DNA of 40,397 bases from a virus (IMGVR_UViG_2663763428_000010); one strand, 5' to 3'. Shown: positions 4,496 through 33,826, counted from the stretch's first letter. Made by a program: numbers and translations. Notes: generated by a model not told the origin, from the letters alone.

Positions 4496-4791
4496 GCCGC
4501 GTCCCTCTGCCCATCAATCTGATCAGCCAGATCCCAGCGGGCGATAATTGCCATTGCCTCGCGCCGGTAGGCATCCATTAGTTCTTCGAACTCAGGGCTG
4601 TCTTTAGCGGCCTCCAGTACTTCCTGGCGAACGCCTTTAACTGTTACAACGTCGAAAGTTGATGCCAGTTGATGAAGCCGGATACTCTCAATCAGTTCAA
4701 CTTGTCGGTCATATAGCTGTTCTGACAGGCGGTAGTCCTTGTCGAATGCCAGCATGATTTTTTGAAGATTTTTCTGCTGATTAACGTTCAT
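4492..4791 (-). CDS. Hypothetical early protein (99 aa from ATG MNVNQQ)
   Basis: GGAGGG Shine-Dalgarno upstream of the ATG at 4791; stop overlaps exonuclease start. Confidence 0.5.
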   Translation of the reverse strand: MNVNQQKNLQKIMLAFDKDYRLSEQLYDRQVELIESIRLHQLASTFDVVTVKGVRQEVLEAAKDSPEFEELMDAYRREAMAIIARWDLADQIDGQRDAA

Positions 4792-4796
4792 TATCA

Positions 4797-4946
4797 GCCC
4801 TCCCATATCTCGTTATCGTTGGCCACATCGCGAGCTTCTTTGCTGACGAAAGCCCACTTAATGCCTTCCTGTAAGGTGCGGAACTTCCAGCTCATGAATC
4901 CGCATGCAGTAACGCAGTACCAACCGTTGATGATTTTCCACTGCAT
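4797..4946 (-). CDS. Small hypothetical protein (49 aa), first gene of leftward early operon
   Basis: ATG at 4946 preceded by GAGGTAA Shine-Dalgarno that lies inside an operator half-site; TGA stop just before the next gene RBS. Confidence 0.35.
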
Positions 4947-4965
4947 AACTTGTTACCTCGGTCTG

Positions 4966-5042
4966 TTACCGTTGAGGTAATAATTATTCGTATCTGGTTT
5001 GATGTCAATAGATATGAGTTAAAAAAATTACCCATTAGGTAA
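4966..5042 (-). promoter_or_regulatory. Leftward early promoter region with two operator palindromes (4966-4980 TTACCGTTGAGGTAA; 5028-5042 TTACCCATTAGGTAA)
   Basis: Two perfect TTACC-N5-GGTAA palindromes between the repressor terminator and the first leftward gene. Confidence 0.6.
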
Positions 5043-5052
5043 TCGAATAGGC

Positions 5053-5078
5053 AATAAAAAAGCCGCCAGAAGGCGGCT
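5053..5078 (-). terminator. Rho-independent terminator downstream of repressor gene
   Basis: AGCCGCC-AGAA-GGCGGCT hairpin preceded on plus strand by an A-tract (U-tract on minus strand). Confidence 0.65.
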
Positions 5079-5099
5079 TACTTACTGAAAAATATGATT

Positions 5100-5684
5100 T
5101 TATTGTTTGTTTTTTTCGTTCTGGTTGATGACAAATTCAATGTAACTTTCGATCTTTGCTTTCTCGGTTTCGGGTAACAATGCGTAGCGCGAGCGATCAT
5201 AGTTGATGGTCGCAGGGTCGTGCGGGTGAATCAGTAATTCATAGCCGTGACGCCCGAATGCGGATGCAACATTCTCCAGGGTGGAAATGGAAACGCTGAC
5301 CTCATTGTTTAACAGGCGGCTGATTGTCACCTGGGCGACGCCGGATGCGCGGTGAAGTTTTCCCTGTGTTGAAAGGTCGCGGCTTTCGCTCATCCAGCGT
5401 TCCAGGTTGTGAGCCGCAAGCTGACCTATATCGCTCGGGCCGACAGGCTGAAAACCCTCCTGAGAAAGCGAACGATCAATATCAAGCCAGTTACGGGGTT
5501 TATTGGCGGCAGCTTCAATTTTTCGTGCAACCTGGTCGCCGATAACCTTCTTGCCAAGAGCCCAGCGGTTTACCAGATTTGCCTGAGTTCCAAGTTTTTC
5601 TGCCATCCGCGTCTGAACACCATTGAATTCACGGTCGATCAAGTCGTTGAGATTTTGCCTGCGGACGTCCTGGATACTTTTCAT
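5100..5684 (-). CDS. Prophage repressor, tandem HTH_XRE domains, no S24 peptidase domain
   Basis: 194 aa; two Cro/CI-type HTH-like segments; divergent from a Cro-like gene across an operator-rich intergenic region. Confidence 0.7.
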   Translation of the reverse strand: MKSIQDVRRQNLNDLIDREFNGVQTRMAEKLGTQANLVNRWALGKKVIGDQVARKIEAAANKPRNWLDIDRSLSQEGFQPVGPSDIGQLAAHNLERWMSESRDLSTQGKLHRASGVAQVTISRLLNNEVSVSISTLENVASAFGRHGYELLIHPHDPATINYDRSRYALLPETEKAKIESYIEFVINQNEKNKQ

Positions 5685-5739
5685 TTTCTGGAAAATCGCC
5701 TCATATATGAATCAGTAGATGATTCAATTTAAAGCAATA

Positions 5740-5802
5740 TTACCCAACAGGTAAATGCACCCCACAGGTAACTATCCTTGATTTTTGTTACCTTATGGGT
5801 GA
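5740..5802. promoter_or_regulatory. Immunity-region operator cluster with three sites (5740-5754 perfect; 5757-5771 degenerate left half; 5788-5802 near perfect) and divergent promoters
   Basis: TTACCCAACAGGTAA, GCACCCCACAGGTAA, TTACCTTATGGGTGA between divergent repressor and cro-like genes; TTGATT -35-like hexamer at 5778-5783. Confidence 0.65.
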
Positions 5803-5838
5803 ATATTTATTATCTGAAATAAATATCAGGCAATAGCT

Positions 5839-6069
5839 ATGAGCGATAACGGACATTTCGATTTCAAAAAGCACTGGCTTGCACTTACTCCGGATGAGCG
5901 TGAAGCCTTCGCACAGGAAGCCGGAACGACGAGTCACTATATCCAGACTCACTTAACAGGTAAGCGCAAAATGCCAGGTAAGGTATTGATGAATGGGCTT
6001 TTTAAAGCCTGTAAAACAAGACAATGGCTGCGCTCAAAAGCAGAACTGGCATACTTCTTCTACTCATGA
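5839..6069 (+). CDS. Cro-like small DNA-binding protein
   Basis: 76 aa ORF divergent from the repressor, immediately downstream of the operator cluster. Confidence 0.55.
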   Translation: MSDNGHFDFKKHWLALTPDEREAFAQEAGTTSHYIQTHLTGKRKMPGKVLMNGLFKACKTRQWLRSKAELAYFFYS

Positions 6070-6090
6070 TATCCAGCCACAACCCTCTGT

Positions 6091-6116
6091 AGACCGCCAT
6101 CCGGCGGTCTTTTCAT
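6091..6116 (+). terminator. Rho-independent terminator after cro-like gene
   Basis: AGACCGCC-ATCC-GGCGGTCT hairpin followed by TTTTC. Confidence 0.6.
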
Positions 6117-6124
6117 ATCTATTC

Positions 6125-6139
6125 GTACCTCAAAGGTAA
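6125..6139. promoter_or_regulatory. Operator palindrome (GTACCTCAAAGGTAA) upstream of the replication operon
   Basis: Family member of TTACC-N5-GGTAA with one mismatch, directly after the cro terminator. Confidence 0.5.
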
Positions 6140-6219
6140 TAAAAAACCAAATATGGTTGATCTTTTTTTTGTGTCAGCACAAAATAACCGTAATCCCAAT
6201 ACTAATAACAGGGCTTACC

Positions 6220-6420
6220 ATGGAAATCATTACACGTATTGATGCCGCAAAGCGCGGACTTAAACGCTACTACACCGGAAAACCATGTAAGCACGGACAT
6301 GACAGTGAACGCTGGGTTTACAACGGACACTGTGTTGAGTGCACCATGGAATCAAACCGTCGCATCAGGGCAGAGATTAAGCAGATCATGATTAATTCCT
6401 CCCCACAACACTCAAGCTGA
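6220..6420 (+). CDS. Small Cys/His-rich hypothetical protein at the cII-equivalent position
   Basis: 66 aa from ATG at 6220; track ORF begins upstream at a TTG, rejected; PCKHGH...GHCVEC motif. Confidence 0.45.
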   Translation: MEIITRIDAAKRGLKRYYTGKPCKHGHDSERWVYNGHCVECTMESNRRIRAEIKQIMINSSPQHSS

Positions 6421-6435
6421 TAGCGGAGATTAATC

Positions 6436-7251
6436 ATGAGCAGACATGCAACAGATTGGGCCTGGGAGACAGATCCAGGTAGCTCATCATTAAAGCTCAT
6501 ACTGCTCTCGATGGCTGACAGAGCCGATGAATATAACCTCTGCTACCCCAGCATAGAACGCCTCGTTAAAGACACTTGCCTGAATAAAAAAACCGTGCAG
6601 GCCGGGCTTATATCGCTCATGAAAATGGGGCTTATTTCAGATACCGGAGAGAGAAAGGGAGCGACAAAAAGAGTGCGGGTTTTCTCTCTTAATATAACCA
6701 AAAACGGGAACATTAAAGGCAACCGGGAGGGGGGCAATGAACCAGAAAACGGTAATGTTACCGAAAACGGGAATATACCCAAAAACGGGATGTTGAATGA
6801 TCCCAAAAACGGGATGTTGAATGATCCCAAAAACGGGATCCAGAACCAGTCATATAACCAGTCATTTAACCAAGAGAGGGAGAGCAGGACAAAAAACGGG
6901 GATTCTGTGCATCATGACCCCGGCGCAAACAACGCCGTGATGAATAACTTTGTTCCTCCTGGTGGGCCAGGGCAATTAGGCAAATTTGTCATGCATGAAC
7001 AATGGCAGCCATCAGATGACTTTCTTCGGAAAAGCTCATTGCAGGGGATCTACCTGGACAGTCTGCCAACGGCACAGGAACTTGCAGAGTTCAGAATTTA
7101 CTGGATGGCTGAGGGTAAGGCATACCATCAGGCACAGTGGGAGCAGAAGCTGGCAAGGCGGCTGCAGATTAGCAGACAGAAGCAATCAACATTATCTGAT
7201 AACAACGTTCCGCACTGGAACAGCCCTGAAGCATGGGAGGATTTCTTGTGA
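6436..7251 (+). CDS. Replication initiator, lambda O-like, N-terminal HTH
   Basis: 271 aa; N-terminal HTH-like domain; internal iteron-like DNA repeats; stop overlaps the P-like gene start. Confidence 0.7.
   Translation: MSRHATDWAWETDPGSSSLKLILLSMADRADEYNLCYPSIERLVKDTCLNKKTVQAGLISLMKMGLISDTGERKGATKRVRVFSLNITKNGNIKGNREGGNEPENGNVTENGNIPKNGMLNDPKNGMLNDPKNGIQNQSYNQSFNQERESRTKNGDSVHHDPGANNAVMNNFVPPGGPGQLGKFVMHEQWQPSDDFLRKSSLQGIYLDSLPTAQELAEFRIYWMAEGKAYHQAQWEQKLARRLQISRQKQSTLSDNNVPHWNSPEAWEDFL
6697..6841. repeat. Iteron-like direct repeats (core CCAAAAACGGGA) including an exact 24-bp tandem duplication at 6778-6825; candidate replication origin
   Basis: Repeated motif at 6697, 6741, 6759, 6778, 6802, 6826 and 6888; followed by AT-rich repeated CCAGTCAT(A/T)TAACCA. 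Confidence 0.55.
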
Positions 7252-8033
7252 ACAACGTTTTTACCGCGATACAAAACCGTGACGGAGAAGCCCTTTCTCG
7301 CATGTCAGGTTATGAGCATCAGTACGTCAACAATGACAATGTGGTTAACATGTCAGCAGAGAGGCTTGTTGATGCCCTTTTCAAACAGCTGAAACAACTG
7401 TTTCCGGCGGCAGTGGTAACCAACCTGAAGACGCCAGAGCAGGAAGTAGCTGCAAAACAGCAGTGGATTGCTGCGTTTGCCGAAGGGGGGATCCGAACCC
7501 GTGAACAGGTTTCTGCTGGTATGCGCCACGCCCGCGCCAGTGAATCTCCGTTCTGGCCGTCGCCTGGGCAATTCATCAAGTGGTGTAAAGACAGCAAGAT
7601 GGTTCTTGGCGTCACCATTGACGATGTGATGGCGGAGTTTCACCGGTACAGCAAGGAAAAAAGTTTATATCCTGGTGGTCCCGAAAGATTCCCGTGGCGA
7701 CATCCGGTTATGTACTGGGTCGTATGTGATACCCGCCGTGCAATGTATCAGCGCCAGCTTAGCGAGATTGAGGTTGAGAAACACGCGCGCAGGCTGCTCG
7801 ATGATTGGGCGAAAAAGGTGGCTTCCGGACAGCAGATACCCGATCCGGTGATCAGCATACAGGCAAAGCCAGAACCCATGAGTACACCTCCGGACACAGG
7901 GAGAGACGTTTACCATCCACCAGGGCGAAGTTTCGGGTGCATGCCTAACGCCGCCACCCTTGGTGGAATAACACCGGCGCAGTGGCTGATGGAGGAATAC
8001 AGGCGAGGAAAGGCGGCAGGATTTATCAAGTAA
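7248..8033 (+). CDS. Replication protein P-like (helicase loader)
   Basis: Central region RTREQVSAGMRHARA..PFWPSPGQFIKWC resembles lambda P as recalled; GTG at 7248 with GGAGG RBS overlapping O stop (GTGA). Confidence 0.75.
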   Translation: MNNVFTAIQNRDGEALSRMSGYEHQYVNNDNVVNMSAERLVDALFKQLKQLFPAAVVTNLKTPEQEVAAKQQWIAAFAEGGIRTREQVSAGMRHARASESPFWPSPGQFIKWCKDSKMVLGVTIDDVMAEFHRYSKEKSLYPGGPERFPWRHPVMYWVVCDTRRAMYQRQLSEIEVEKHARRLLDDWAKKVASGQQIPDPVISIQAKPEPMSTPPDTGRDVYHPPGRSFGCMPNAATLGGITPAQWLMEEYRRGKAAGFIK

Positions 8034-8038
8034 TACCA

Positions 8039-8058
8039 GCGCGATAGCGCATTTTTTT
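8039..8058 (+). terminator. Weak terminator-like hairpin after P-like gene
   Basis: GCGC-GATA-GCGC short stem followed by ATTTTTTT. Confidence 0.35.
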
Positions 8059-8070
8059 ACGCCTCAACAA

Positions 8071-8147
8071 TTACCTGTTAGGTAATAAAACATTCTAAAA
8101 TCTATTGATTTCGTGTCTTATGTGGTTTTTAATTACCTCAGAGGTAA
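8071..8147 (+). promoter_or_regulatory. Promoter flanked by two operator palindromes (8071-8085 TTACCTGTTAGGTAA; 8133-8147 TTACCTCAGAGGTAA)
   Basis: -35-like TTGATT 8105-8110, 17-bp spacer, -10-like TTTAAT 8128-8133 overlapping the second operator, whose right half also supplies the GAGG RBS for the ATG at 8151. Confidence 0.55.
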
Positions 8148-8150
8148 ATC

Positions 8151-8495
8151 ATGAGAAAACAGATACAGGCTCTTGGTCGACTCAAAACAGGTCAGATGAA
8201 CAAAACAGAATCTGCGTATTGCCAGCACCTTGAGCTGCGTAAACGTGCAGGAGAAATCGTCTGGTATCGATTTGAGGGTATCAAGCTGCGGTTAGCTGAC
8301 AACACGTTCTATACGCCCGATTTTGCTGTGATGCTCGCCACCGGCGAGATGGAACTGCACGAAGTGAAAGGTTTCTGGACCGACGACGCCAGGGTGAAAA
8401 CCAAAGTCGCCGCAGATCAGTATCCGTTCCGAATCATCGGGGTAACGGTTAAACCAAAGAAAGCAGGTGGTGGCTGGATCATCGAAGAGTTCTGA
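8151..8495 (+). CDS. DUF1064-like phage protein (possible PD-(D/E)xK/resolvase-like fold)
   Basis: 114 aa ORF with RBS; family assignment recalled from similar lambdoid prophage proteins, not verified. Confidence 0.5.
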   Translation: MRKQIQALGRLKTGQMNKTESAYCQHLELRKRAGEIVWYRFEGIKLRLADNTFYTPDFAVMLATGEMELHEVKGFWTDDARVKTKVAADQYPFRIIGVTVKPKKAGGGWIIEEF

Positions 8496-8556
8496 ATCGA
8501 CGATCTTTTTAGTTATCAATGTTATCAATAAGTTATGTGGATAAGCGAGGGTAAAT

Positions 8557-9069
8557 ATGGAAAGTAATATCAAAGGGTTAGTTTCTGCCGGGCATGAGAT
8601 GGCTTCGGAACTGAAAGCTGAATGTGGTGCCGTTGATATGCGCAGTGTGGCAAAGCTGCTCAGCGATTTGGCAACGCAACTGGAAGTGCAACTGGTGCGT
8701 GCTAATGCGCTGGCCGAAGACCACCAGAGCGCGATTGAGTCAATTAAGCAGGCTGATGCTGCTGTTAAGTTGGCACACGAGAAGTTTTCAGCGCTGGCAG
8801 CGGAGAATGCAAAGCTGAAGAAGTTCTGCAAAGACGCTGCATTCGATGCCGATTACGAAGCAGAGCTAGGTATGGAGAGAGGTGGCTTCAGTGATGCACT
8901 TAACGAAATCAAAACCCCGGCCACCGACGCATTCCTTGCTGAAGTCCGGGCGCAGGGCGTGGAGATGGCTATGGAGCATATGCAGTCGAGCGGTTCGTTA
9001 ACATTTGGAGATTGCTACATATCACTTAACGAGTTCGCCGCAGAGCTTCGCAAAGGAGGCAACCAGTGA
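8557..9069 (+). CDS. Hypothetical protein, coiled-coil rich
   Basis: 170 aa ORF with GAGGGTAAAT RBS. Confidence 0.55.
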   Translation: MESNIKGLVSAGHEMASELKAECGAVDMRSVAKLLSDLATQLEVQLVRANALAEDHQSAIESIKQADAAVKLAHEKFSALAAENAKLKKFCKDAAFDADYEAELGMERGGFSDALNEIKTPATDAFLAEVRAQGVEMAMEHMQSSGSLTFGDCYISLNEFAAELRKGGNQ

Positions 9070-9824
9070 GCAAGATTGACTATCAGGCACTGCGTGAGTT
9101 AGCAAAACAGGCAACACAGGGCGAATGGGTCGCATTTATTTCGCCGGGTACTGGTACGTATGCGGTGCATACGCCAGGTGATAAACGATGCGAAGATGTT
9201 ATCAAATGGCCTGGGTTTGATGGACAGAAAAAAGCTGCTGCTAATGCTCGTTATATCGCAGCTTTCAACCCTGAAGTAGTGCAGGCACTGCTGGATGAAC
9301 GGGAAAGAAACCAGCAATACATCAAACGCCGCGACCAGGAGAACGAGGATATTGCGCTAACGGTAGGGAAGCTGTTAATCGAAAACGGTCAGCTTGTTGC
9401 CGATACGCTACGCCACTTAGCTGATAACGAAATCGACTCTGATTATTTTGCTATCACCTCAACTAATGAGAACGGTACTGAAATTGATCATGAGATGTCT
9501 ATTACCGATTACGCACTGCAAGCTGCCGGAACTGTAGACGAATTGGTTGCGGCGCTGGAAGCCGCAAAATCAAAACTCAACGAGCAGCGTGAATATTACG
9601 AGGGAGTAATCGCGGATGGAAGTAAGCGCATAGCAGAGTTAGAAAGTGGTTCTCAGGCACAAAAGTTAGTTGAAGCAATCATTGTTGCGATAGAAAACGA
9701 ACAGGAACGTCTTTTTGATGAAGATTACCTAATGGATTCGAAAGAATGCATTGACGTAATTCGTGAAGAAGTAAAGCGATGGAATGATTCCCGCGCCGCT
9801 GGCATTCGCATCAAAGGAGAGTGA
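9066..9824 (+). CDS. Ead/Ea22-like protein
   Basis: 252 aa; N-terminus MSKIDYQALRELAKQATQGEW characteristic of Ea22-like proteins; GTG start overlapping previous stop. Confidence 0.6.
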   Translation: MSKIDYQALRELAKQATQGEWVAFISPGTGTYAVHTPGDKRCEDVIKWPGFDGQKKAAANARYIAAFNPEVVQALLDERERNQQYIKRRDQENEDIALTVGKLLIENGQLVADTLRHLADNEIDSDYFAITSTNENGTEIDHEMSITDYALQAAGTVDELVAALEAAKSKLNEQREYYEGVIADGSKRIAELESGSQAQKLVEAIIVAIENEQERLFDEDYLMDSKECIDVIREEVKRWNDSRAAGIRIKGE

Positions 9825-9825
9825 T

Positions 9826-10062
9826 ATGGCAACTTTGAAAAAAGAAGATCGTTTTACCAAAAAACAAATCGCCGAGGCAAAAATCCTCGATAACAACGGA
9901 ACCTACTTCATCAACGGTTCCATTCTTCCAGTTTATATCAATGAGGATGGAGACACTTACCTTATTGAAGAGTACGAAAAAGGCGAGCCGAGCGAACACC
10001 TCATTAAAGATTTGTTCGCGGATGGCGTTATTGTTGCGGTTAATCCAATCGGATACAACTGA
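9826..10062 (+). CDS. Hypothetical protein (78 aa)
   Basis: ATG at 9826 preceded by AAAGGAGAG RBS; track ORF start further upstream rejected. Confidence 0.5.
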   Translation: MATLKKEDRFTKKQIAEAKILDNNGTYFINGSILPVYINEDGDTYLIEEYEKGEPSEHLIKDLFADGVIVAVNPIGYN

Positions 10063-10072
10063 GGCATAATTT

Positions 10073-10243
10073 ATGACCACTTTAACCGACAAAGAACTGA
10101 TTAAAGAAATCAAAGAGCGTATCAGCAGCCTGGACGTTCGAGACAATATTGAACGCCGGGCTTATGAAATTGCACTGGCATCGCTGGAAGCAGACCCGGT
10201 TGTGTTCTGGTTTGAAAAATATCAAGAAGGGGCTACGGCATGA
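10073..10243 (+). CDS. Small hypothetical protein (56 aa)
   Basis: ATG with GAGG RBS; stop overlaps next start (ATGA); N-terminus MTTLTDKEL resembles next gene N-terminus MTTFTNSKL. Confidence 0.4.
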   Translation: MTTLTDKELIKEIKERISSLDVRDNIERRAYEIALASLEADPVVFWFEKYQEGATA

Positions 10244-11022
10244 CCACTTTTACCAATAGCAAACTAACAGACGAATACGTTTCAAATGCAACGTTGATTC
10301 GGCTCATTCTGTGGGCTGACCAGCACAATAGCCATTATGTTGTAGCGGCTCTGCGCGAGCTACAGGAGCGCCGCAAGGCTGATAGTGCCGAACCTGCAAG
10401 TAATCATGAAGAGTTGCCACTTGATTATCTCCAAGGTCAAAAAGATGGTCTTGAATGGGCTGCGCAGCTTGCAGAAGCAAATCACCCACAAACTGGCGAC
10501 TGGCTTTACGATGACCCGCTGGAGCTGGCTAAAGCTATCAGAAAAGGTCCTGACATGCCCGAATTCGATGGACCAACTCCGGTAACTCCGGCTCTTCTGC
10601 CTGGTGGTTTCACCATTGAGGAGGCGAAGGAATTACATGAAAACCTGGTACGCAGCCACATAAGCAAGGCCTTAAGTGGCGAAAAGATGAAAAAGAAAGA
10701 TCGCGATGCTGATTTGCGCTGGATTCATGGCGTAATAGTTCAGGCCGCGTGGTTTATAAAAGCATCACTGGAGCAGACCGCGCTATCGGGCACTCCTCCG
10801 GTAATTCCAGATGGTTGGATAAGCTGTAGTGAGCGAATGCCGGAAGACAACAAAATGTTACTGGCATTTAGTCAAGGTCAAATAGTGGCAGCATATTGGA
10901 ACTGGGTAATGAGTCCAATTGATTACAAAAAATATAGAGCTTTCACATATTTATCAGGAAATATCTTGGATGACGTAACCCACTGGATGCCGCTACCAGA
11001 ACCGCCGCAGGAGGTTAAGTGA
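10240..11022 (+). CDS. DUF551-domain protein
   Basis: 260 aa; C-terminal THWMPLPEPP segment typical of DUF551 as recalled. Confidence 0.55.
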   Translation: MTTFTNSKLTDEYVSNATLIRLILWADQHNSHYVVAALRELQERRKADSAEPASNHEELPLDYLQGQKDGLEWAAQLAEANHPQTGDWLYDDPLELAKAIRKGPDMPEFDGPTPVTPALLPGGFTIEEAKELHENLVRSHISKALSGEKMKKKDRDADLRWIHGVIVQAAWFIKASLEQTALSGTPPVIPDGWISCSERMPEDNKMLLAFSQGQIVAAYWNWVMSPIDYKKYRAFTYLSGNILDDVTHWMPLPEPPQEVK

Positions 11023-11372
11023 TGGACTATTCACAGTTAAGTGATTTTGAAATTAACAGAATGGTAGGAGACATAATTTTTAAAGGCCTTTGGGCGTGTA
11101 AACCGGAAACATCAGGGAATAACACCAACAAATGGTATTACGGAAATACTGATACAACTTTTGAGCCATTAAACCCTTTACCTGACTACTGCAATAATCC
11201 ATCGGATGCATGGCCTATTATTGTTGATAATAAAATCAGTCTAACCTGCCACCACTCTCGCGGTGAGTGGTCAGCTGTTTTTAATGCCGAGAACATTTGC
11301 TTTCATGCGAATAATCCACTCCGAGCCGCCATGATTGTATTTCTCATGATGCAGGAAAATCAGAATGGCTAA
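11019..11372 (+). CDS. Hypothetical phage protein (possibly DUF2591-like)
   Basis: 117 aa ORF overlapping neighbours; family guess unverified. Confidence 0.5.
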   Translation: MMDYSQLSDFEINRMVGDIIFKGLWACKPETSGNNTNKWYYGNTDTTFEPLNPLPDYCNNPSDAWPIIVDNKISLTCHHSRGEWSAVFNAENICFHANNPLRAAMIVFLMMQENQNG

Positions 11373-11703
11373 ATCAGCAGCAGAGCGCAAAGCCGCTCAG
11401 AGAGCCAGACAAGCTGAATCCGGTGTGCGTAAGCTGGAAATTATGCTTGATGCTCAGGAAATTGAAATGCTGGAGCGTAACTGTGCCACGCGTCGCCCCG
11501 GGCGTGCGCCTTACGAATTTGGTGAGTATATAGCGTTACTGATCCGCCAGGATGATGCACGCGTGCGTGGGCGTATGAAATCGATCAGCAGAAAACGTTG
11601 CGGTAAGTGCGGAGAGAGAGTTCCTGTGAATTCATGCCCGTGTAATGGTGACTCGCAATGCTGGGTGACTAAAGGCTGGCATGAAACGAAATTAATAGTG
11701 TGA
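11365..11703 (+). CDS. Hypothetical protein with C-terminal Cys cluster
   Basis: 112 aa; CGKCG...CPC motif; TGA stop lies inside the GTGACATGTCAC palindrome. Confidence 0.5.
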   Translation: MAKSAAERKAAQRARQAESGVRKLEIMLDAQEIEMLERNCATRRPGRAPYEFGEYIALLIRQDDARVRGRMKSISRKRCGKCGERVPVNSCPCNGDSQCWVTKGWHETKLIV

Positions 11704-11711
11704 CATGTCAC
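11700..11711. repeat. Exact 12-bp palindrome GTGACATGTCAC, copy 1 of 3
   Basis: Direct read; overlaps stop codon of the preceding gene. Confidence 0.9.
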
Positions 11712-11752
11712 GAGTAGATTATACATGATGAATTTGATGGGTTTTGAATACT

Positions 11753-11778
11753 GCCGCCAACTATGGCGGCTTTATTTT
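11753..11778 (+). terminator. Rho-independent terminator at end of early-right region
   Basis: GCCGCC-AACTAT-GGCGGC hairpin followed by TTTATTTT. Confidence 0.65.
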
Positions 11779-11789
11779 GCATGGTACTA

Positions 11790-11822
11790 TTACCACAACG
11801 GTAACTATTACCACGGTGGTTA
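11790..11822 (+). promoter_or_regulatory. Two operator palindromes immediately upstream of terminase small subunit (11790-11804 TTACCACAACGGTAA; 11808-11822 TTACCACGGTGGTTA)
   Basis: Tandem ACTATTACCAC direct repeats forming two TTACC-N5-GGTAA-type sites; second site abuts the terS start codon. Confidence 0.55.
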
Positions 11823-12418
11823 TGATGTCTGCTGAACCTAAAACCTATAAACGCAAATCAACGCAATTTAAGCCACTAACAGCAATGCAGGAGGCTTATT
11901 GCCAGTCATACATCAAAACGCCTGAAAACCAGACTCAGGCAGCGATTAACGCAGGATTCTCCCCAAATACAGCGGCAGTTAAAGCCAGTGTCATGATGCG
12001 CGATGAACGCATTCAAAAACGGATTGCCGAGTTGATGGAGGAGCGCAACAAACGAATGCGCGTCAGTGCTGATTACGTTCTCATGCGCCTGGTGGAGATC
12101 GACCAGATGGACGTGATCGACATCCTCAACGACGATGGGAGCCTTAAGCCAATCCGCGAGTGGCCGAAAATCTGGCGCACTACGCTTAGCGGCTTTGATC
12201 TGTCATCGACCATCATGAACATGAACGAGGATTCGATAGAGACAATCCTCAAAAAAATTAAATGGCCTGACAAGGTGAAGAACCTCGAACTGATTGGTAA
12301 GCACGTCGACGTCAACGCATTCAAAGAACGCCTGGATGTTAATGTGAATGTGACAATTGCTGATCGCATAGCAGCAGCCAGGAAGCGACTCAAAGAACGT
12401 CAGGATTGTAATCAGTGA
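11822..12418 (+). CDS. Terminase small subunit
   Basis: About 198 aa from ATG at 11822; position immediately upstream of large terminase; track ORF N-terminal extension crosses terminator and operators and is rejected. Confidence 0.65.
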   Translation: MMSAEPKTYKRKSTQFKPLTAMQEAYCQSYIKTPENQTQAAINAGFSPNTAAVKASVMMRDERIQKRIAELMEERNKRMRVSADYVLMRLVEIDQMDVIDILNDDGSLKPIREWPKIWRTTLSGFDLSSTIMNMNEDSIETILKKIKWPDKVKNLELIGKHVDVNAFKERLDVNVNVTIADRIAAARKRLKERQDCNQ

Positions 12419-13890
12419 CAGATACAGCGTTATCTCCTGAAGAGCAGTTGATCGAGGATATTGCAGGGTTCACTCACGATCCGCTTGGCTATGCCCTCTA
12501 TGCGTTCCCGTGGGGGGAAGAGGGGACTGAACTGGCACATGCTACCGGCCCACGTCAGTGGCAGGCTGATGCGTTCCGAGAGATACGTGATCACCTGCAG
12601 AATCCGGAGACGCGCTATCAGCCGCTTATGCTGGCACGCGCTTCTGGTCACGGTATTGGTAAATCCGCATTTATCTCAATGCTGATCAACTGGGGCATGT
12701 CCACTTGCGAGGATTGTAAGGTCGTGGTGACCGCCAACACCGACAACCAGCTACGAACGAAGACCTGGCCGGAAATTATCAAGTGGTCGAACCTTGCTAT
12801 CACGAAAGACTGGTTTACCTGTACCGCTACCGCGATGTACAGCAATGACCCTGGGCACGACAAGCGGTGGCGAGCTGACGCAATCCCCTGGTCTGAGCAC
12901 AACACTGAGGCATTCGCCGGACTACACAACGAGCGCAAACGCATCATCGTGGTATTCGATGAAGCGTCGAACATTGCGGATCTGGTGTGGGAAGTCGCTG
13001 AGGGTGCGCTTACGGACGAAGACACTGAGATTATTTGGGTGGCGTTCGGAAACCCGACGCGTAATACCGGACGTTTCCGCGAATGTTTCCGCAAATATAA
13101 ACACCGCTGGAAAACTGCGCAGATTGACAGCCGGACGGTGGAAGGCACCAACAAACAGCAGTTGCAGAAATGGGTTGATGACTACGGGGAAGACAGCGAC
13201 TTCGTTAAAATCCGTGTGCGCGGCATATTCCCTGATGCATCTGAATTGCAGTTTATCCCTACCGGTCTTACTGACGAGGCAATGAAACGGGTGGTAACTG
13301 CTGCGCAGGTGGCACATGCTCCGGTGATAATCGGCGTTGACCCTGCATACTCCGGTGTTGATGACGCGGTGATATACCTGCGGCAGGGGCTGCACAGTAA
13401 GGTGCTGTGGACCGGCAACAAGACCACTGACGATCTGATTATGGCAAAGCGTATCGCTGACTTTGAAGACCAGTATCAGGCTGACGCGGTGTTCATCGAC
13501 TTCGGTTACGGTACCGGGCTGAAGTCAATCGGTGACGGTTGGGGGCGCACATGGCAACTTGTTCCGTTCGGTGGCGCGTCTACTGACCCGCAGATGCTCA
13601 ACAAGCGTGGGGAGATGTTCAACTCATGCAAGACATGGCTGAGGCTGGGCGGCATGCTGGATGACCAGGAAACAGCGGACGACCTGTCGGCGGCAGAGTA
13701 CAAAGTTCGAGTGGACGGTAAAATCGTTATCGAACCGAAGGAAGATATCAAGGAGCGGCTTGGGCGTTCGCCGGGTAAAGGCGATGCGCTACTGCTGACG
13801 TTTGCGTTCCCTGTGTCTAAGCGTCTGCGAATTCCCGGGCAGCAGAACCAGCAAGGCAAGGCCATTACAGATTACGATCCCTATGCTTAA
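12415..13890 (+). CDS. Terminase large subunit
   Basis: 491 aa; Walker A-like GHGIGKS; nuclease-like C-terminal region; overlaps terS stop. Confidence 0.85.
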   Translation: MTDTALSPEEQLIEDIAGFTHDPLGYALYAFPWGEEGTELAHATGPRQWQADAFREIRDHLQNPETRYQPLMLARASGHGIGKSAFISMLINWGMSTCEDCKVVVTANTDNQLRTKTWPEIIKWSNLAITKDWFTCTATAMYSNDPGHDKRWRADAIPWSEHNTEAFAGLHNERKRIIVVFDEASNIADLVWEVAEGALTDEDTEIIWVAFGNPTRNTGRFRECFRKYKHRWKTAQIDSRTVEGTNKQQLQKWVDDYGEDSDFVKIRVRGIFPDASELQFIPTGLTDEAMKRVVTAAQVAHAPVIIGVDPAYSGVDDAVIYLRQGLHSKVLWTGNKTTDDLIMAKRIADFEDQYQADAVFIDFGYGTGLKSIGDGWGRTWQLVPFGGASTDPQMLNKRGEMFNSCKTWLRLGGMLDDQETADDLSAAEYKVRVDGKIVIEPKEDIKERLGRSPGKGDALLLTFAFPVSKRLRIPGQQNQQGKAITDYDPYA

Positions 13891-13932
13891 TCCGTTAGCG
13901 GGGATAATGACGGAGATATCCTCTGGTGAGGA

Positions 13933-13960
13933 TAAAACAAAGCCAGCTCATCGGCTGGCT
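13933..13960. terminator. Bidirectional rho-independent terminator between terminase and Gp49-like gene
   Basis: AGCCAGC-TCATCG-GCTGGCT hairpin flanked by A-tract upstream and GTTTGT downstream. Confidence 0.6.
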
Positions 13961-13964
13961 GTTT

Positions 13965-13976
13965 GTGACATGTCAC
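13965..13976. repeat. Exact 12-bp palindrome GTGACATGTCAC, copy 2 of 3
   Basis: Direct read; 4 nt from the stop codon of the Gp49-like gene and adjacent to the terminator hairpin. Confidence 0.9.
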
Positions 13977-13980
13977 GGTG

Positions 13981-14337
13981 TTATTGCTCGCTTAACTTCT
14001 GCTTCAGCAAGTAACCTTCAAGCATCCAGATTTTGTTTACAGCATTCTGCCGGGCAATCTTCCGACCAATTTCCGCATCAAAGTTTTCCGGGCTTGCACA
14101 GGCGCTCTCTCCGGTGACGGTGAAGCCGTTGCGCAGCACCAGAACGCAGAAAGTCAGGAGGTCTGTAGATTTATGCGCTGTCCATGAATCGCCAACGCCC
14201 ATATTGGCAGCACGAATGCCGTCATAAGCAGTAAAGAAATGCTCTTCAAGAATAATGCTTTCGATATATTGAGGCGTAACGCGCGGCGCGGCTAAACCTT
14301 TAGCCTGAATTTCAGATTCAATGTCTTTGTCACTCAT
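13981..14337 (-). CDS. N4 Gp49 / Sf6 Gp66-family protein (moron, function unknown)
   Basis: 118 aa minus-strand ORF inside an otherwise plus-strand late region; AAGGTGAG RBS; family assignment from recalled sequence pattern. Confidence 0.6.
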   Translation of the reverse strand: MSDKDIESEIQAKGLAAPRVTPQYIESIILEEHFFTAYDGIRAANMGVGDSWTAHKSTDLLTFCVLVLRNGFTVTGESACASPENFDAEIGRKIARQNAVNKIWMLEGYLLKQKLSEQ

Positions 14338-14353
14338 AGTCTAATCTCACCTT

Positions 14354-14377
14354 AAAAAAATGCCCGGCGAACCGGGC
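14354..14377 (-). terminator. Rho-independent terminator downstream of tRNA gene (minus strand)
   Basis: GCCCGG-TTCG-CCGGGC hairpin followed on the minus strand by U7; sits directly upstream of the Gp49-like gene RBS. Confidence 0.65.
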
Positions 14378-14540
14378 GAACTGGAAGCAATGAGTTATGC
14401 CTTCCGTGGCTGTACTGGTTTACAGCATGAAGTCATCGCAATGGCGTCCTGCTGTAAAAAGGGCGGTGATAGTCCTTCAAGGGAAACCATCACCGCCAAG
14501 CCCCTGGAACTTCTGGCATCACGGTCCTTAGGCGTGATTC

Positions 14541-14617
14541 TGGCGTGGCATGCAGGATTCGAACCTGCGACCAACCGCTTAGAAGGCGGTTGCTCTGTCC
14601 AACTGAGCTAATGCCAC
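14541..14617 (-). tRNA. tRNA-Arg, anticodon UCU (reads AGA)
   Basis: Reverse complement folds as full cloverleaf: acceptor GTGGCAT/ATGCCAC, D-arm GCTC...GAGC, anticodon stem ACCGC/GCGGT with loop CTTCTAA, T-arm GCAGG-TTCGAAT-CCTGC, discriminator G and encoded CCA. Confidence 0.85.
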
Positions 14618-14939
14618 AACGCTGAGAGCACTTAGCCTGTTAAGGCACCACACTTTGTCGCGGCTCCATAAATGCTCTCATCGTTGTACCCTCGCCTCTT
14701 CCGAGGCGTCACACCGAATCGCCGGGATGGTGAATCCCCGTGCGCGGAATAAAACCGCTCGACTTGCACATTCCGGCTACCTGGTTCGTTTGCCCGAGCA
14801 AGGGAGGGTGCCCCTTAAACGTATCCAGACCGCTATCGTCGCATGTGCCATACGCCGTACTGCTCAAAATAAAAGCTCACTCCACCTGTTCAATTTAACG
14901 ACAAGCCAGTCAGGTTAGTAACCGGAATGAACCCTTTAG

Positions 14940-14954
14940 TTACCTGAAGGGTAA
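14940..14954 (+). promoter_or_regulatory. Operator palindrome (TTACCTGAAGGGTAA) upstream of head gene operon
   Basis: TTACC-N5-GGTAA family member about 90 bp upstream of the ATG at 15045. Confidence 0.5.
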
Positions 14955-15044
14955 TAATTCGCGCGTTAAATGTCAACTGTCTACGATAAATAAATCATAT
15001 GTGGTTAAATTGGTAATGATTTAATTGCGTACGGAGTCATTGAT

Positions 15045-15251
15045 ATGTGCATGGGTAGCTCATCATCAGTGCCTGCAACACCAGAAGTTCAGGCAGCACC
15101 ACAGGAGCAGGATGCCGCCGTTGTTGATGCCCGCGACGAAGAAACTCGTCGCCGTCGCGCTGCTGCTGGTCGTAGTTCTACGCTGCTTACCGGTTCTCAG
15201 GGCGACACATCAACCGCTAATACCAGCGGTAAAACGCTGCTTGGTCAGTAA
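15045..15251 (+). CDS. Small hypothetical protein preceding portal (68 aa)
   Basis: GGAGTCATTGAT-ATG RBS context nearly identical to the portal RBS context. Confidence 0.45.
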   Translation: MCMGSSSSVPATPEVQAAPQEQDAAVVDARDEETRRRRAAAGRSSTLLTGSQGDTSTANTSGKTLLGQ

Positions 15252-15265
15252 CCGGAGTCATTGAA

Positions 15266-16945
15266 ATGGCGGAAACAACTAAAGAGCGATTGAACAAACA
15301 GTTCGCACAACTTGAAAGCGAGCGTCAGTCGTTCGAGCCGCACTGGCGCGAGTTGAGTGATTACATCAACCCGCGTGGTTCCCGCTTTCTGACTTCTGAG
15401 GTCAACCGTAACGATCGACGCAATACACGCATTATTGATTCGACCGGGACTATGGCGGCGCGCACTCTCGCCAGCGGCATGATGTCAGGCATCACAAGCC
15501 CCGCGCGTCCGTGGTTTCGCCTGGCTACGCCAGATCCTGAAATGATGGATTATGGCCCTGTTAAGTTGTGGCTTGAGGCGGTGCAGAACCGCATGAACGA
15601 TATGTTCAATAAGTCGAATCTCTATCAGTCGCTGCCGCAGTTATACGGAAGCCTCGGCACATACAGCACTGGTGCAATGGCAGTGCTGGAAGATGACGAG
15701 GACATCATTCGCACAATGCCATTCCCGATAGGCAGTTACTACCTGGCTAACTCACCTCGTGGCAGTGTGGACACCTGTTTTCGCAAGTTCGCTATGACTG
15801 TTCGTCAGCTTGTTCAGGAGTTCGGGCTAAATAACGTCAGCGAATCCGTAAAAAGCATGTGGGAAAGCGGCACCTACGAGAAGTGGATTGAAGTGATGCA
15901 TTCGGTTTACCCGAACATTGACCGCGATACATCGAAGCTGGATAGCAAGAACAAGCCATTCAAATCGGTTTATTACGAGGTTGGTGGCGATAACGACAAG
16001 TTGTTGCGTGAGTCCGGATTCGATGAGTTTCCAATTATGGCTCCGCGCTGGGAAGTTAACGGCGAAGATGTTTATGGATCATCATGCCCGGGTATGCTGG
16101 CGCTTGGACCTGTTAAGGCATTGCAGCTTCTTCAGAAGCGCAAGTCGCAGTTGATTGATAAAGCCACCAATCCGCCGATGGTTGCTCCGACTTCCCTCAA
16201 GAATCAGCGTGCCTCCCTTCTTCCTGGCGACATCACGTATATCGATCAGATTACTGGTCAGGATGGTTTCAGGCCTGCTTATCTGGTTAACCCCAGTACA
16301 GCAGATCTGGTAGCAGACATTCAGGACACTCGGCAAATCATTAACAGCGCCTACTTTGTCGATCTGTTCATGATGTTGCAGAACATCAATACCCGCTCGA
16401 TGCCTGTTGAAGCGGTGATCGAAATGAAAGAAGAAAAACTTCTGATGTTGGGGCCGGTTCTGGAGCGTCTGAACGACGAATGTCTTAATCCTCTCATTGA
16501 CCGCGCTTTCTCGATGATGGTGCGTAAAAACATGCTGCCGCCACCGCCTGACGCGATGGAAGGTATGCCCCTGAAGGTCGAATACATTTCCGTCATGGCT
16601 CAGGCGCAGAAGTCTATCGGCCTGTCCAGTCTGGCATCCACGGTCAACTTCATTGGTCAACTTGCGCAAGCGAAACCAGAAGCTCTCGACAAACTCAACG
16701 TTGATCAGGCGATCGATGCATTCGCTGATATGTCCGGAGTGTCTCCAACCGTCATTGTTCCGCAGGAACAGGTTGAGCAGGCTCGCCAGCAACGGGCACA
16801 GCAACAACAGCAGCAACAAATGATGGCGATGGGGATGGCGGCGGCACAGGGGGCCAAGACGCTAAGCGAAGCTAAAACTTCGGATCCGAGTGTGTTGTCA
16901 GCTATGGCGAATGCAGTTAGTGGTCAGGGTGGGCAATCACAATGA
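15266..16945 (+). CDS. Portal protein, T7 gp8-like head-to-tail connector
   Basis: 559 aa; size, position after terminase and poly-Q/acidic C-terminal tail; family call by recalled similarity. Confidence 0.8.
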   Translation: MAETTKERLNKQFAQLESERQSFEPHWRELSDYINPRGSRFLTSEVNRNDRRNTRIIDSTGTMAARTLASGMMSGITSPARPWFRLATPDPEMMDYGPVKLWLEAVQNRMNDMFNKSNLYQSLPQLYGSLGTYSTGAMAVLEDDEDIIRTMPFPIGSYYLANSPRGSVDTCFRKFAMTVRQLVQEFGLNNVSESVKSMWESGTYEKWIEVMHSVYPNIDRDTSKLDSKNKPFKSVYYEVGGDNDKLLRESGFDEFPIMAPRWEVNGEDVYGSSCPGMLALGPVKALQLLQKRKSQLIDKATNPPMVAPTSLKNQRASLLPGDITYIDQITGQDGFRPAYLVNPSTADLVADIQDTRQIINSAYFVDLFMMLQNINTRSMPVEAVIEMKEEKLLMLGPVLERLNDECLNPLIDRAFSMMVRKNMLPPPPDAMEGMPLKVEYISVMAQAQKSIGLSSLASTVNFIGQLAQAKPEALDKLNVDQAIDAFADMSGVSPTVIVPQEQVEQARQQRAQQQQQQQMMAMGMAAAQGAKTLSEAKTSDPSVLSAMANAVSGQGGQSQ

Positions 16946-19427: not shown

Positions 19428-19772
19428 GTGATATCGATGTCAGGTGAGAAACCAAGATACCGCGTTCTGCGCCTCTCTCATATCCATAACACTCTGTGGC
19501 CGGAGGGGGCAGAAATCGAATACGAAGGTGAGCCTGGTAGCGCACTGGAACCTGTTAACGATGCAGCCAGACAGGCAAAAGCAAAAGTTGCAGGAAAGGT
19601 GTCAATGGCAGCAACCAGCACCAAAATCATCAACGATGTGTCAGATGATGGTGAACTGGATAAGCTCCGTGAAGAGTACGAATTGCTCTTTAACGAGAAG
19701 CCACACCATAACGCCAAAGCCGAAACGCTCCGCGAGAAGATCGCAGATAAGCGTAAAGAACTGGGCGTGTAA
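19428..19772 (+). CDS. Hypothetical protein
   Basis: 114 aa ORF; followed by terminator. Confidence 0.5.
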   Translation: MISMSGEKPRYRVLRLSHIHNTLWPEGAEIEYEGEPGSALEPVNDAARQAKAKVAGKVSMAATSTKIINDVSDDGELDKLREEYELLFNEKPHHNAKAETLREKIADKRKELGV

Positions 19773-19788
19773 GCCTCGCGAATCAGAC

Positions 19789-19822: not shown

Positions 19823-20146
19823 ATGGAACTCGTAAACCTCAAAACCGGCACTGACAGCTACCAGGATGAGAGCGGAGAAACCAGAACTCGCGATGAATAC
19901 CCGTGGGGGCTGTGCATCAATCTTAATAACGACACATTGAATAAGCTGAAGGCGCAACCTCAGGGCGTCGGAACAGAAGTGATGATAACTGCAAAGGCTG
20001 TTATTCGAGGCCTGTCTGCCAGAGAAACTGACGATGGTGTTAATCGCAGCGCCGATCTGCAGATCACTGATATGGCGATCGCTCATGTTTCCGGGGATGT
20101 AGAAAAATCAGCGGCTGAAACCCTGTACGGCAATGGGGGTGAGTAA
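19823..20146 (+). CDS. Hypothetical virion protein
   Basis: ATG at 19823 with GGAG RBS; track start 19817 less likely. Confidence 0.5.
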   Translation: MELVNLKTGTDSYQDESGETRTRDEYPWGLCINLNNDTLNKLKAQPQGVGTEVMITAKAVIRGLSARETDDGVNRSADLQITDMAIAHVSGDVEKSAAETLYGNGGE

Positions 20147-31225: not shown

Positions 31226-31522
31226 ATGCAAGCTATAGGATTCATTGTTTATATCGTCGTTGGTCTTTTTCAGTTGGCAGCAATTATGGCTGGGCTTGAA
31301 TCATGGTGGGGATTGCACTGGATAATTGCAGCCCCCATTGCTTTCATCGTGAGCTATATTCCATTTGTTGGAGCGATTGTTGGTATGGTTGGCGCTGTGG
31401 ATGTATGGCGGTGGGAGTGGTGGCAGGCTGGCCTTCTATTCTTTGGTGGGATAATCTTTGCTATTGTCTGCGGTGGAATGTCATCATTTTTCGAATGGCT
31501 ATCATTCAGAAAAGGGACGTGA
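31226..31522 (+). CDS. Integral membrane protein (moron; possible superinfection exclusion)
   Basis: 98 aa, three to four hydrophobic helices, Trp-rich; AGGTGA RBS; stop inside GTGACATGTCAC palindrome. Confidence 0.55.
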   Translation: MQAIGFIVYIVVGLFQLAAIMAGLESWWGLHWIIAAPIAFIVSYIPFVGAIVGMVGAVDVWRWEWWQAGLLFFGGIIFAIVCGGMSSFFEWLSFRKGT

Positions 31523-31530
31523 CATGTCAC
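31519..31530. repeat. Exact 12-bp palindrome GTGACATGTCAC, copy 3 of 3
   Basis: Direct read; overlaps stop codon and abuts the terminator. Confidence 0.9.
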
Positions 31531-31798: not shown

Positions 31799-32311
31799 CT
31801 ATGCAGGCTTTTTGGATTTGTACGAATAATCCCACGGATAAACATTTCTACTAAGTGGAGCTGTATTCGTTCGTTCATGAAATAATTTTGTGAAATTCAA
31901 TACGGAATCCATCCAAACTTTTGCGTTAGCTTTGGTGTGTGCGGGCGGGTCCCAATAAGCTAGTAAGGCTGCATCTCTTATTTCATTGACTGCATATATG
32001 AGATATGCGTTACTGGTTGGTTTTGGCCTGTAATTTCCTTGTTCATCAATCAATCCATATGACCACTCATCCCAACACTGTTCAGTACATGAGTATGAAT
32101 ATGATGCATATTCACCAATATTGACATGAACCTTTCTGAGATGGAAGCCTAATACTTCCTCTGGTCTTTCAAAAAGAGTATCTTTTCCCAGATCAGGATG
32201 ATGACCATGACGCCAGTGTTGTTTAAAAGCATCTTTTAGCGAAATCAGAAAGTCATCAGTTTTAAACTCACCAGTAGGTATAACCTTCCCGCTATACTCA
32301 CTCAAAAACAT
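31799..32311 (-). CDS. Toxin-like protein, tentatively YafO-family
   Basis: 170 aa; segments HGHHPDLGKDTLF, LRKVHVNI and TSNAYLIY...LLAYWDPPAH resemble E. coli YafO as recalled from memory; ATG embedded in the end of the upstream gene with GGAAGAGGAA RBS. Confidence 0.45.
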   Translation of the reverse strand: MFLSEYSGKVIPTGEFKTDDFLISLKDAFKQHWRHGHHPDLGKDTLFERPEEVLGFHLRKVHVNIGEYASYSYSCTEQCWDEWSYGLIDEQGNYRPKPTSNAYLIYAVNEIRDAALLAYWDPPAHTKANAKVWMDSVLNFTKLFHERTNTAPLSRNVYPWDYSYKSKKPA

Positions 32312-32624
32312 CGAATTCCTCTTCCTTCATATGCGTTTCTAATGAGTTAAGCTGGCGGAAAGATATCTCTTTTGATTCTGCAGATGAGAGTTTTTTTATC
32401 CGCTTTATATTCTTTGTGATAGGAATAGACATTGTATGCACATCAGCGGATGCTCTTGGCTTTGTGCTGATAAAAATATGGCGCAATGCCGCATTTTCAC
32501 TATTGAACGAGCCAATAGCTGATTTACGTGCTACAACCTTACCAGTAAAAATACGACTCTTGCTACGCTTTGCATGAGTTCCGCTTCTTACCGGACCTCT
32601 CATCACGAATCCAAGTTTTGTCAT
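32298..32624 (-). CDS. Basic small protein, candidate partner/antitoxin of the downstream toxin-like gene
   Basis: 108 aa; GGAG RBS; overlaps the downstream gene by 14 nt; acidic C-terminus EEEFDVFE. Confidence 0.45.
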   Translation of the reverse strand: MTKLGFVMRGPVRSGTHAKRSKSRIFTGKVVARKSAIGSFNSENAALRHIFISTKPRASADVHTMSIPITKNIKRIKKLSSAESKEISFRQLNSLETHMKEEEFDVFE

Positions 32625-32666: not shown

Positions 32667-32681
32667 TTACCTTTAAGGTAA
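32667..32681 (-). promoter_or_regulatory. Operator palindrome (TTACCTTTAAGGTAA) upstream of the two-gene toxin-like operon
   Basis: Perfect TTACC-N5-GGTAA about 45 bp upstream of the start at 32624, in an AT-rich promoter-like region. Confidence 0.5.
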
Positions 32682-33733: not shown

Positions 33734-33748
33734 TTACCGCAAAGGTAA
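33734..33748 (-). promoter_or_regulatory. Operator palindrome (TTACCGCAAAGGTAA) upstream of antirepressor gene
   Basis: Perfect TTACC-N5-GGTAA in the long leader upstream of the Bro-N gene. Confidence 0.5.
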
Positions 33749-33826
33749 TGATAAGCGCGGATAAATATTAAAATCAACCGTATTTGGTTGATTACGTTTA
33801 ACGCTTGATCACCTGAAAGCAAGATA

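Follow-up and report, generated by a model that had tools for sequence, protein, structure and literature searches.

IMGVR_UViG_2663763428_000010 is a 40,397-nt stretch of viral DNA (hereafter the window, meaning the whole stretch analysed), in which positions 8039–14954 lead from the end of the replication genes, past the terminase genes terS and terL, to the approach of the head operon. A sequence-only reading had described terminators followed by operator palindromes at the heads of the late and accessory operons here. We lay out these palindromes across the window, together with the promoters and terminators beside them, and argue that they are probably the operators of a single prophage repressor, Rep, placed at the start of nearly every transcription unit.

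A megablast search with positions 4500–16000 returned as nearest relatives the E. coli Uetakeviruses PAS61, phiv142-3, ZX5, TL-2011b and phiV10 (~97% identity), with ε15 and SPN1S ~80% identical to the window over the terminase region. By this kinship the window is assigned to an ε15/phiV10-like temperate podophage of the genus Uetakevirus, with lambda-like replication genes (P, DnaT-like) and a late region that is not lambdoid. The gene map, built from open reading frames and homologous annotation, leaves 7.7% of the window non-coding. The comparison set comprised 11 genomes: the window, ε15, SPC32H, Enterobacter phage BUCT554, Klebsiella phage BUCT711 and six prophages (hosts Superficieibacter, Erwinia, Klebsiella, Citrobacter twice, and Scandinavium), for which the loci span only a part of the genome. 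A further 80 IMG/VR loci with terL added no diversity, all being at least 99% identical in terL and, where they reached rep, at least 98.5% identical in the repressor. The features of the region are as follows.

8039–8058, plus strand: weak intrinsic terminator after the P-like gene (GCGC-GATA-GCGC at 8039–8050, then A and T7; folding free energy, dG, −7.4 kcal/mol)
8071–8147, plus strand: operator-promoter-operator unit, palindromes at 8071–8085 and 8133–8147, 62 bp apart
11365–11703, plus strand: PHROG 536 gene, coding for a Cys-rich regulator of 112 aa; no other gene lies between it and the terS terminator
11700–11711: a different palindrome, GTGACATGTCAC, which overlaps the PHROG 536 stop codon
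11753–11778, plus strand: strong intrinsic terminator ending the early-right operon, a 7-bp G+C stem (hairpin 11753–11770) followed by UUUAUUUU
11782–11790, plus strand: extended −10 element TGgTACTAT, predicted start ~11797
11790–11822, plus strand: palindromes O1 (11790–11804, perfect) and O2 (11808–11822, one mismatch), 18 bp apart
14940–14954: single perfect palindrome, 90 nt upstream of the first head-operon gene (15045)
14955–15044, plus strand: conserved block with a half-operator, TGGTT-AAATT-GGTAA, at 15002–15016, exactly 62 bp from the full site at 14940 (five-genome alignment and motif scan)

The palindromes that the sequence-only reading had placed at 8071, 8133, 11790, 11808 and 14940, and both of its terminators, are all present where it put them. 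Its account of a weak terminator and then two operators flanking a promoter after P stands, as does that of a strong terminator and then two operators abutting terS. Its generalization that each operon begins with a terminator is right in two modules out of three, no plus-strand terminator lying directly before 14940; the site that it set before the head genes is a perfect one, at the 90-nt remove given above.

We then asked how often the palindrome occurs. With at most one mismatch, TTACC-N5-GGTAA matched 15 times in the window against 0.57 expected, a count reached in none of 100 shuffles. Fourteen of these matches, including all 10 perfect ones, fall in the non-coding 7.7%; the sole match in a coding region, at 35229 inside the tailspike gene, is probably a chance occurrence. 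There are thus at least 14 intergenic operator sites in about nine intergenic regions, and the sites noted earlier are part of a larger network that also takes in 4966, 5028, 5740, 5757, 5788, 6125, 32667, 33734, 33827 and 34947. Among 141 sites pooled from the 11 genomes, the half-sites TTACC and GGTAA are near-invariant, the five central bases are free to vary and the flanking base is mostly A/T, giving the 17-mer ATTACC-N5-GGTAAT. Fixed half-sites around a variable centre fit a protein-binding site rather than an RNA hairpin, and the pooled sites are two-fold symmetric, not asymmetric or oriented with transcription. Two other ideas were discarded: AACC-N6-GGTT as a second palindrome, with two matches, a number that 9 of 100 shuffles reached; and the terS-proximal repeats as a packaging site, because the identical palindrome makes up the left and right operators.

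The clearest case is the terS module. Reading on from the last early gene and its stop codon (11703), one meets in turn GTGACATGTCAC, the terminator (dG −16.2 kcal/mol, z −4.96), TGgTACTAT, O1, O2 and the terS start codon at 11825. The terminator is kept in ε15, SPC32H and the loci L088, L089, L090 and L091, and is absent in BUCT554, BUCT711 and L087. The sequence TG-n-TA[C/G/T]TAT, on the other hand, abuts O1 in all nine genomes, including the three without a terminator. Its TG never changes, while n can be G, T or A, a pattern typical of extended −10 promoters, and there is no usable −35 element. As the predicted start lies inside O1, bound Rep would block open-complex formation; the O1 orthologue in ε15 is annotated as a repressor-binding site, and the right half of O2 also serves as the ribosome-binding site of terS. 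BUCT554, BUCT711 and the Erwinia prophage lack the terminator and have a LexA-controlled UmuD-like gene directly against the terS operators, with the promoter-operator unit unchanged. Since the unit persists without the terminator, it is the promoter plus operators that is conserved, and this makes repressor-controlled initiation at terS a well-supported prediction, for which the unit is the best evidence. We infer that the promoter would fire without an activator. In two of these phages, at ~8190–8266 of BUCT554 and ~364–438 of BUCT711, a LexA box, TACTGTTTAAAT[G/A]TACAGTA, and a 109-aa UmuD-like gene sit between the PHROG 536 gene and terS.

Repressor-gated initiation is likewise a well-supported prediction for the module after the replication genes. 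The promoter between its two operators is TTGATT-17-TTTAAT (8105–8133; −35 at 8105–8110, −10 at 8128–8133), with the next gene starting at 8151. The −35 hexamer and both operators are conserved in the five-genome alignment, and the 62-bp pair recurs with identical spacing in ε15, SPC32H, BUCT554 and BUCT711. The preceding terminator has an invariant stem and T-run and a variable loop in the five genomes.

Motif scans located the palindrome at orthologous positions, and at more besides, in ε15, SPC32H, BUCT554, BUCT711 and the six enterobacterial prophages. The ε15 RefSeq record (NC_004775) carries seven "protein_bind: repressor" features orthologous to window sites: one before terS (12–27), one before gp3 (2931–2947), one before the tailspike gene (19895–19911), three at the left operator and one after the replication genes (35906–35922). 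It annotates one site before terS where two exist, and none at the right operator where three exist. Hence the dispersed-operator layout is a genus-wide trait predicted earlier in the ε15 annotation, and the claim made here is only partly new; no paper in the collection searched describes an ATTACC/GGTAAT operator. As a side observation, a conserved operator-like site with one mismatch, TTACC-N5-GGTAT, lies directly upstream of int in four of four relatives (ε15, 26882; L084, 26960; BUCT554, 19769–19783; BUCT711, 12620–12634). The window opens with the int start codon itself, which leaves the orthologous site beyond its edge.

The candidate for the cognate protein is encoded in the switch region, and its presumed antagonist lies further to the right.

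4966–5042: left operator region, sites 4966–4980 and 5028–5042, 62 bp apart, flanking the leftward promoter TTGACA-17-AATTAT (5008..4980)
5100–5684, minus strand: rep, 194-aa repressor, full-length homologue of SPC32H Rep (PDB 5d50_A, E 4e-42, residues 1–190)
5740–5802: right operator region, in the gap that separates rep from the cro-like gene, with palindromes at 5740, 5757 (two mismatches) and 5788
5839–6069, divergent from rep: cro-like gene, 76 aa, PHROG 35 "transcriptional repressor"
6091–6139, plus strand: terminator after the cro-like gene (6091–6110, dG −15 kcal/mol), then an operator at 6125–6139 (one mismatch)
34613–34888, minus strand: ant, small 91-aa antirepressor, homologue of SPC32H Ant (PDB 5d50_E, E 1.9e-46, residues 8–90)
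34890–34909: LexA box, perfect CTGT-N8-ACAG at 34892–34907, directly upstream of ant

Rep combines a YdaS-like helix-turn-helix (HTH) at residues 21–61 with a Pfam HTH_3 domain at 106–147, and Pfam gave no S24 peptidase domain in it. Its homologues are 42–76% identical to it (~42% for the Salmonella proteins), and the helix NLVNRW in the N-terminal domain is invariant in five genomes. The full-length homologues found among phages and 185k species genomes all share NLVNRW and one half-site, a result biased by search patterns that themselves required NLVNRW; distant homologues of the N-terminal domain only (Hydrogenovibrio, Paraburkholderia) come without the palindrome motif. A later paper summarising the SPC32H structures reports that it is the Rep tetramer that binds palindromic DNA, with only weak binding by the dimer, and that a tetrameric Ant splits the tetramer into dimers (PMC9638917). 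The tetramerisation domain, in the C-terminal, Ant-binding part of Rep, resembles those of DNA-looping regulators (PMC9986798). On all features examined the window groups with the SPC32H/ε15 Rep–Ant family. The motif sits on either side of rep and the cro-like gene and reappears where separate transcription units begin; the palindromes are therefore likely to be the operators of Rep, and Rep would bind these exact sites.

Two observations adjoin the switch region. The Rep proteins of E. coli, Salmonella, Klebsiella and Enterobacter phages have one recognition helix and one operator despite identities down to 42%, and the genus may be largely homoimmune at the level of DNA binding. In addition, a leftward promoter-like sequence, CTGACA-16-CATATT (6150–6177, minus strand), lies downstream of the cro-like gene and reads through the 6125 operator, antisense, towards rep; its position recalls lambda PRE, and a similar sequence occurs in ε15 at 33753 (minus strand).

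Taken as a whole, we would put at roughly 0.7 the probability that the ATTACC-N5-GGTAAT sites are operators of a single master repressor, Rep, gating nearly every transcription unit. On this model, the units are separated by intrinsic terminators or opposite-strand genes, and nearly every one would be headed by a promoter under Rep control: left early, right early, post-replication accessory, terS-terL, head/internal-protein, tailspike plus lysis, and two accessory modules. The operators of the window occur mainly as pairs, and one Rep tetramer would hold two palindromes at once, presumably bridging them, with some pairs 62 bp apart bracketing a promoter (left; 8105–8133) and the 18-bp pair covering the transcription start (terS). 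In the lysogen, Rep would shut initiation at all units together, and the terminators would act as insulators, stopping stray lysogen transcription from leaking into lytic modules. DNA damage would lead to LexA cleavage and the release of Ant (34613–34888), which would take the Rep tetramer apart and so free all modules.

The spacing of the sites and their relation to promoters bear on whether each one acts locally. Among 53 neighbouring pairs no more than 120 bp apart in the 11 genomes, a spacing of 62 bp is the commonest (18 pairs), followed by 17–20 bp (16 pairs). In each of the five phage genomes, pairs of the 62-bp class bracket both the left and the post-replication promoter (the left pair of BUCT711 is at 63 bp), and this distance would fit one tetramer sitting on two operators on the same helix face. 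Several promoters have a −10 hexamer that runs directly into the operator, its final AT being the first two bases of ATTACC: AATTAT|TACC at the left promoter, TTTAAT|TACC at 8128, and TACTAT|TACC at terS and, on the minus strand, at 32667. The rightward promoter TTGTTA-17-TATTAT (5785–5813) overlaps the 5788 operator. Were the late sites instead mainly architectural, that is, anchors for tetramer bridging, prophage compaction or silencing, or sinks for Rep, they would exert no local promoter control site by site. The looping-type tetramerisation domain speaks for such a role, and so do the single sites at 14940, 32667, 34947 and 6125, which would need a distant or weak partner, and the lack of any recognisable −10 overlapping the 14940 site. 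We nonetheless hold this improbable, as operators abut or overlap −10 hexamers at the left promoter, 8133, 11790 and 32667, and the conserved pair spacings argue for local action.

Equally improbable, in our estimate, is a scheme in which the Cro-like protein binds the palindromes in addition to Rep or in its place, turning modules down during lytic growth, so that the sites would serve to time lytic growth and not to silence the lysogen. Cro and CI use common operators in lambda-type switches, and here a PHROG 35 "transcriptional repressor" is encoded divergently from rep. Against this scheme, the invariant NLVNRW recognition helix of Rep tracks the invariant half-site; the scheme is also compatible with Rep gating rather than exclusive of it.

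A further motif, TATNTGGTT, accompanies the operators. It has 10 matches against 1.26 expected, seven of them in operator-bearing intergenic regions (4991, 6145 on the minus strand, 8119, 14998, 33781, 34993 and 35018 on the minus strand), mostly 5–6 nt from a Rep half-site, and may represent a hitherto unrecognised element of promoters or of activator binding.

The end of the early-right operon holds the material for a different account of late expression. The second palindrome, GTGACATGTCAC, occurs three times in the window against 0.05 expected, each time near an intrinsic terminator: besides 11700–11711, it lies at 13965–13976 after terL and at 31519–31530 at the end of the structural operon. 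The three positions are kept in ε15, SPC32H, BUCT554 and BUCT711, with the terL-proximal copy of BUCT711 not recovered at the edge of the linear record, and five of the six prophages carry copies. In the Uetakevirus phages and prophages examined, GTGAC-N2-GTCAC coincides with the stop codon of the PHROG 536 gene or follows closely behind it, and the same holds for PHROG 536 homologues of unrelated phages, namely ZF40, Chlobot, N15 (gp46) and a P2-like Yersinia phage (sites in unrelated phages: ZF40, 14944; N15, 1767; L099, 1797; L101, 1789). The association between the PHROG 536 gene and this palindrome is thus robust across the sequences compared. The protein has 709 homologues, all annotated "hypothetical", and its AlphaFold model (pLDDT, a per-residue confidence score, of 58) was too poor to use; no paper in the collection searched contains GTGACATGTCAC. 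One possibility is that the PHROG 536 protein recognises GTGAC-N2-GTCAC, which would then be a new control element at operon ends, deciding readthrough into the late genes, for example by protein-assisted termination or antitermination.

From here it is a short step to the view that late expression arises mainly by readthrough or antitermination, with a phage factor passing the terminators ending at 8058 and 11778 and the operators serving as roadblocks or a safety lock in the lysogen. The PHROG 536 regulator gene directly precedes the second of these terminators and its palindrome is found near three; a weak sigma-70-like sequence, GTGACA-18-CATGAT (11700–11729), just upstream of the terminator recalls lambda PR'-tR', although its spacing is not conserved; a PerC-like activator is encoded in the left operon (2089–2388); and the search for a clear head-operon promoter found none. 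However, the early-operon proteins scanned with Pfam, PHROGs and NCBIfam gave no match to a Q- or N-type antiterminator. The distance from GTGACATGTCAC to the terminator and to terS varies, with a whole gene intervening in BUCT554 and BUCT711, which also argues against GTGACATGTCAC as a fixed activator site for terS. Opposite-strand genes separate the late units, and what is conserved before terS is the extended −10 with its operators, not the terminator. We consider this account unlikely, though less so than the two schemes discussed above.

Returning to gating by Rep, the remaining operators lie at or near the head operon and in the right part of the window.

32667–32681: operator abutting a leftward promoter-like TTGCAG-17-TACTAT (read from sequence), ahead of the genes 32624..31799
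33734–33841: two operators, 33734–33748 and 33827–33841, at the head of a leftward C4/isrK RNA and Bro-N/Ant-fusion module
34947–34961: operator (one mismatch) between ant and the tailspike/lysis operon, the tailspike gene starting at 35066

The distance from the 14940 operator to gp3 equals that in ε15, and the ε15 orthologues of the 14940 and 34947 sites are both among the annotated repressor-binding sites; repressor gating of the head and tailspike units is plausible, with a promoter found at neither. A leftward candidate, TAGACA-18-AATTAT (14983..14954), was not adopted, being shared by the E. coli, Enterobacter and Klebsiella types but missing from the Salmonella types. Between terL and the head operon, on the opposite strand, are a tRNA-Arg(TCT) gene (14541–14617, minus strand) and, adjoining it, a gene of the N4 gp49/Sf6 gp66 family (13981–14337, minus strand); SPC32H has a tRNA-Arg at the equivalent place.

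Two accessory modules complete the set. Behind the operator-fused promoter at 32667, a two-gene leftward unit (31799–32624, minus strand) codes for proteins of 108 aa and 170 aa, the latter with a weak match to the YafO toxin, and may be a toxin–antitoxin-like accessory module under Rep control. Upstream of the Bro-N gene (32754–33479, minus strand), Rfam matches to the C4 antisense RNA and isrK (33513–33697, minus strand) were recovered, and the C-terminus of the Bro-N protein matches SPC32H Ant. These matches identify a P1 immI-like c4-ant module, that is, a predicted second antirepressor route beside the LexA-controlled small Ant.

Four points weigh against gating of nearly every unit by Rep. 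First, no convincing sigma-70 promoter was seen near 14940 (14955–15044) or 34947, and no candidate there is conserved, so that the late units may need an activator. Second, the relatives all have one operator specificity, and repressor–operator covariation accordingly gives no discrimination. Third, although overexpression of the repressor of phage ZX5, which is identical to the window Rep, lowered holin and endolysin transcripts by >99.9% (PMC9782041) and so speaks for gating, the drop fits direct and indirect repression alike. Fourth, simultaneous release of all units leaves the temporal order of early and late expression unexplained. One way to meet the last point is that Uetakeviruses may do without a dedicated late activator or antiterminator, a single tetrameric repressor gating the packaging, head and tail/lysis promoters directly; temporal order may then come solely from operator architecture, in the form of 62-bp pairs, 18-bp pairs and single sites. 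We regard this idea, and with it the PHROG 536 operon-end element, as speculative and rather doubtful. The sequence-only reading had cast late expression as repressor-gated and not driven by antitermination. Its first half is well supported for initiation at the post-replication and terS modules and agrees with the lack of a Q or N match; the exclusion of antitermination or readthrough is unproven. Its description of the layout as unusual for lambdoid late regulation does not apply, the phage being a Uetakevirus with a non-lambdoid late region and the layout the norm of its genus.

Most textbook temperate phages lock only their early promoters and leave late genes to a cascade; Uetakeviruses appear to put packaging, head and tail/lysis genes directly under the lysogenic repressor. 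If true, this would be a compact case of whole-genome silencing by a tetrameric, antirepressor-controlled repressor, and would explain quiet lytic modules beside expressed accessory genes in the prophage. The terS promoter-operator unit is small, conserved and readily tested. The practical value is modest, as the sites are orthologous to ones already predicted in ε15.

Among known systems, the nearest is that of SPC32H and ε15, with which the window shares homologous Rep and Ant (SPC32H PDB 5D4Z, 5D50), a LexA box before ant, and ATTACC-N5-GGTAAT at the left and right operators, after the replication genes (as a 62-bp pair) and before terS, gp3 and the tailspike gene. It differs in a Rep only ~42% identical overall to the Salmonella proteins and in the extra Bro-N/Ant fusion behind C4/isrK RNAs with operators of its own. 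In phage P1, C1 binds 22 dispersed operators and is relieved by antirepressors (PMC8546580). Both systems have one repressor over many separate operons and an operator-controlled ant module behind a C4 antisense RNA. However, the P1 operators are asymmetric 17-mers whereas the window sites are palindromic, and P1 governs its late genes indirectly via the activator Lpa, whereas the window has operators directly at the packaging, head and tailspike units. No match to an Lpa-like factor was found in the window, in which the PerC-like and PHROG 536 regulators are present. The resemblance to C1-type control is an analogy in logic only.

Mycobacteriophage L5 and its cluster A relatives silence the entire prophage through >20 repressor sites, which are scattered over early and late regions and mostly lie in short gaps between genes (PMC9283540), and in this dispersal they resemble the window. 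Their stoperators are asymmetric, monomer-bound and orientation-dependent and block elongation, whereas the window sites are palindromic, paired and mostly promoter-overlapping; the 6125 site and O2 of terS do lie downstream of predicted starts or terminators. Finally, lambda Q at PR'-tR' offers the same succession of regulator gene, terminator and late genes, with lambda-like P and DnaT-like genes upstream in the window. In contrast to lambda, the window, in which no Q homologue was found, has its late genes in several units with repressor operators and a conserved extended −10 promoter downstream of the terminator.

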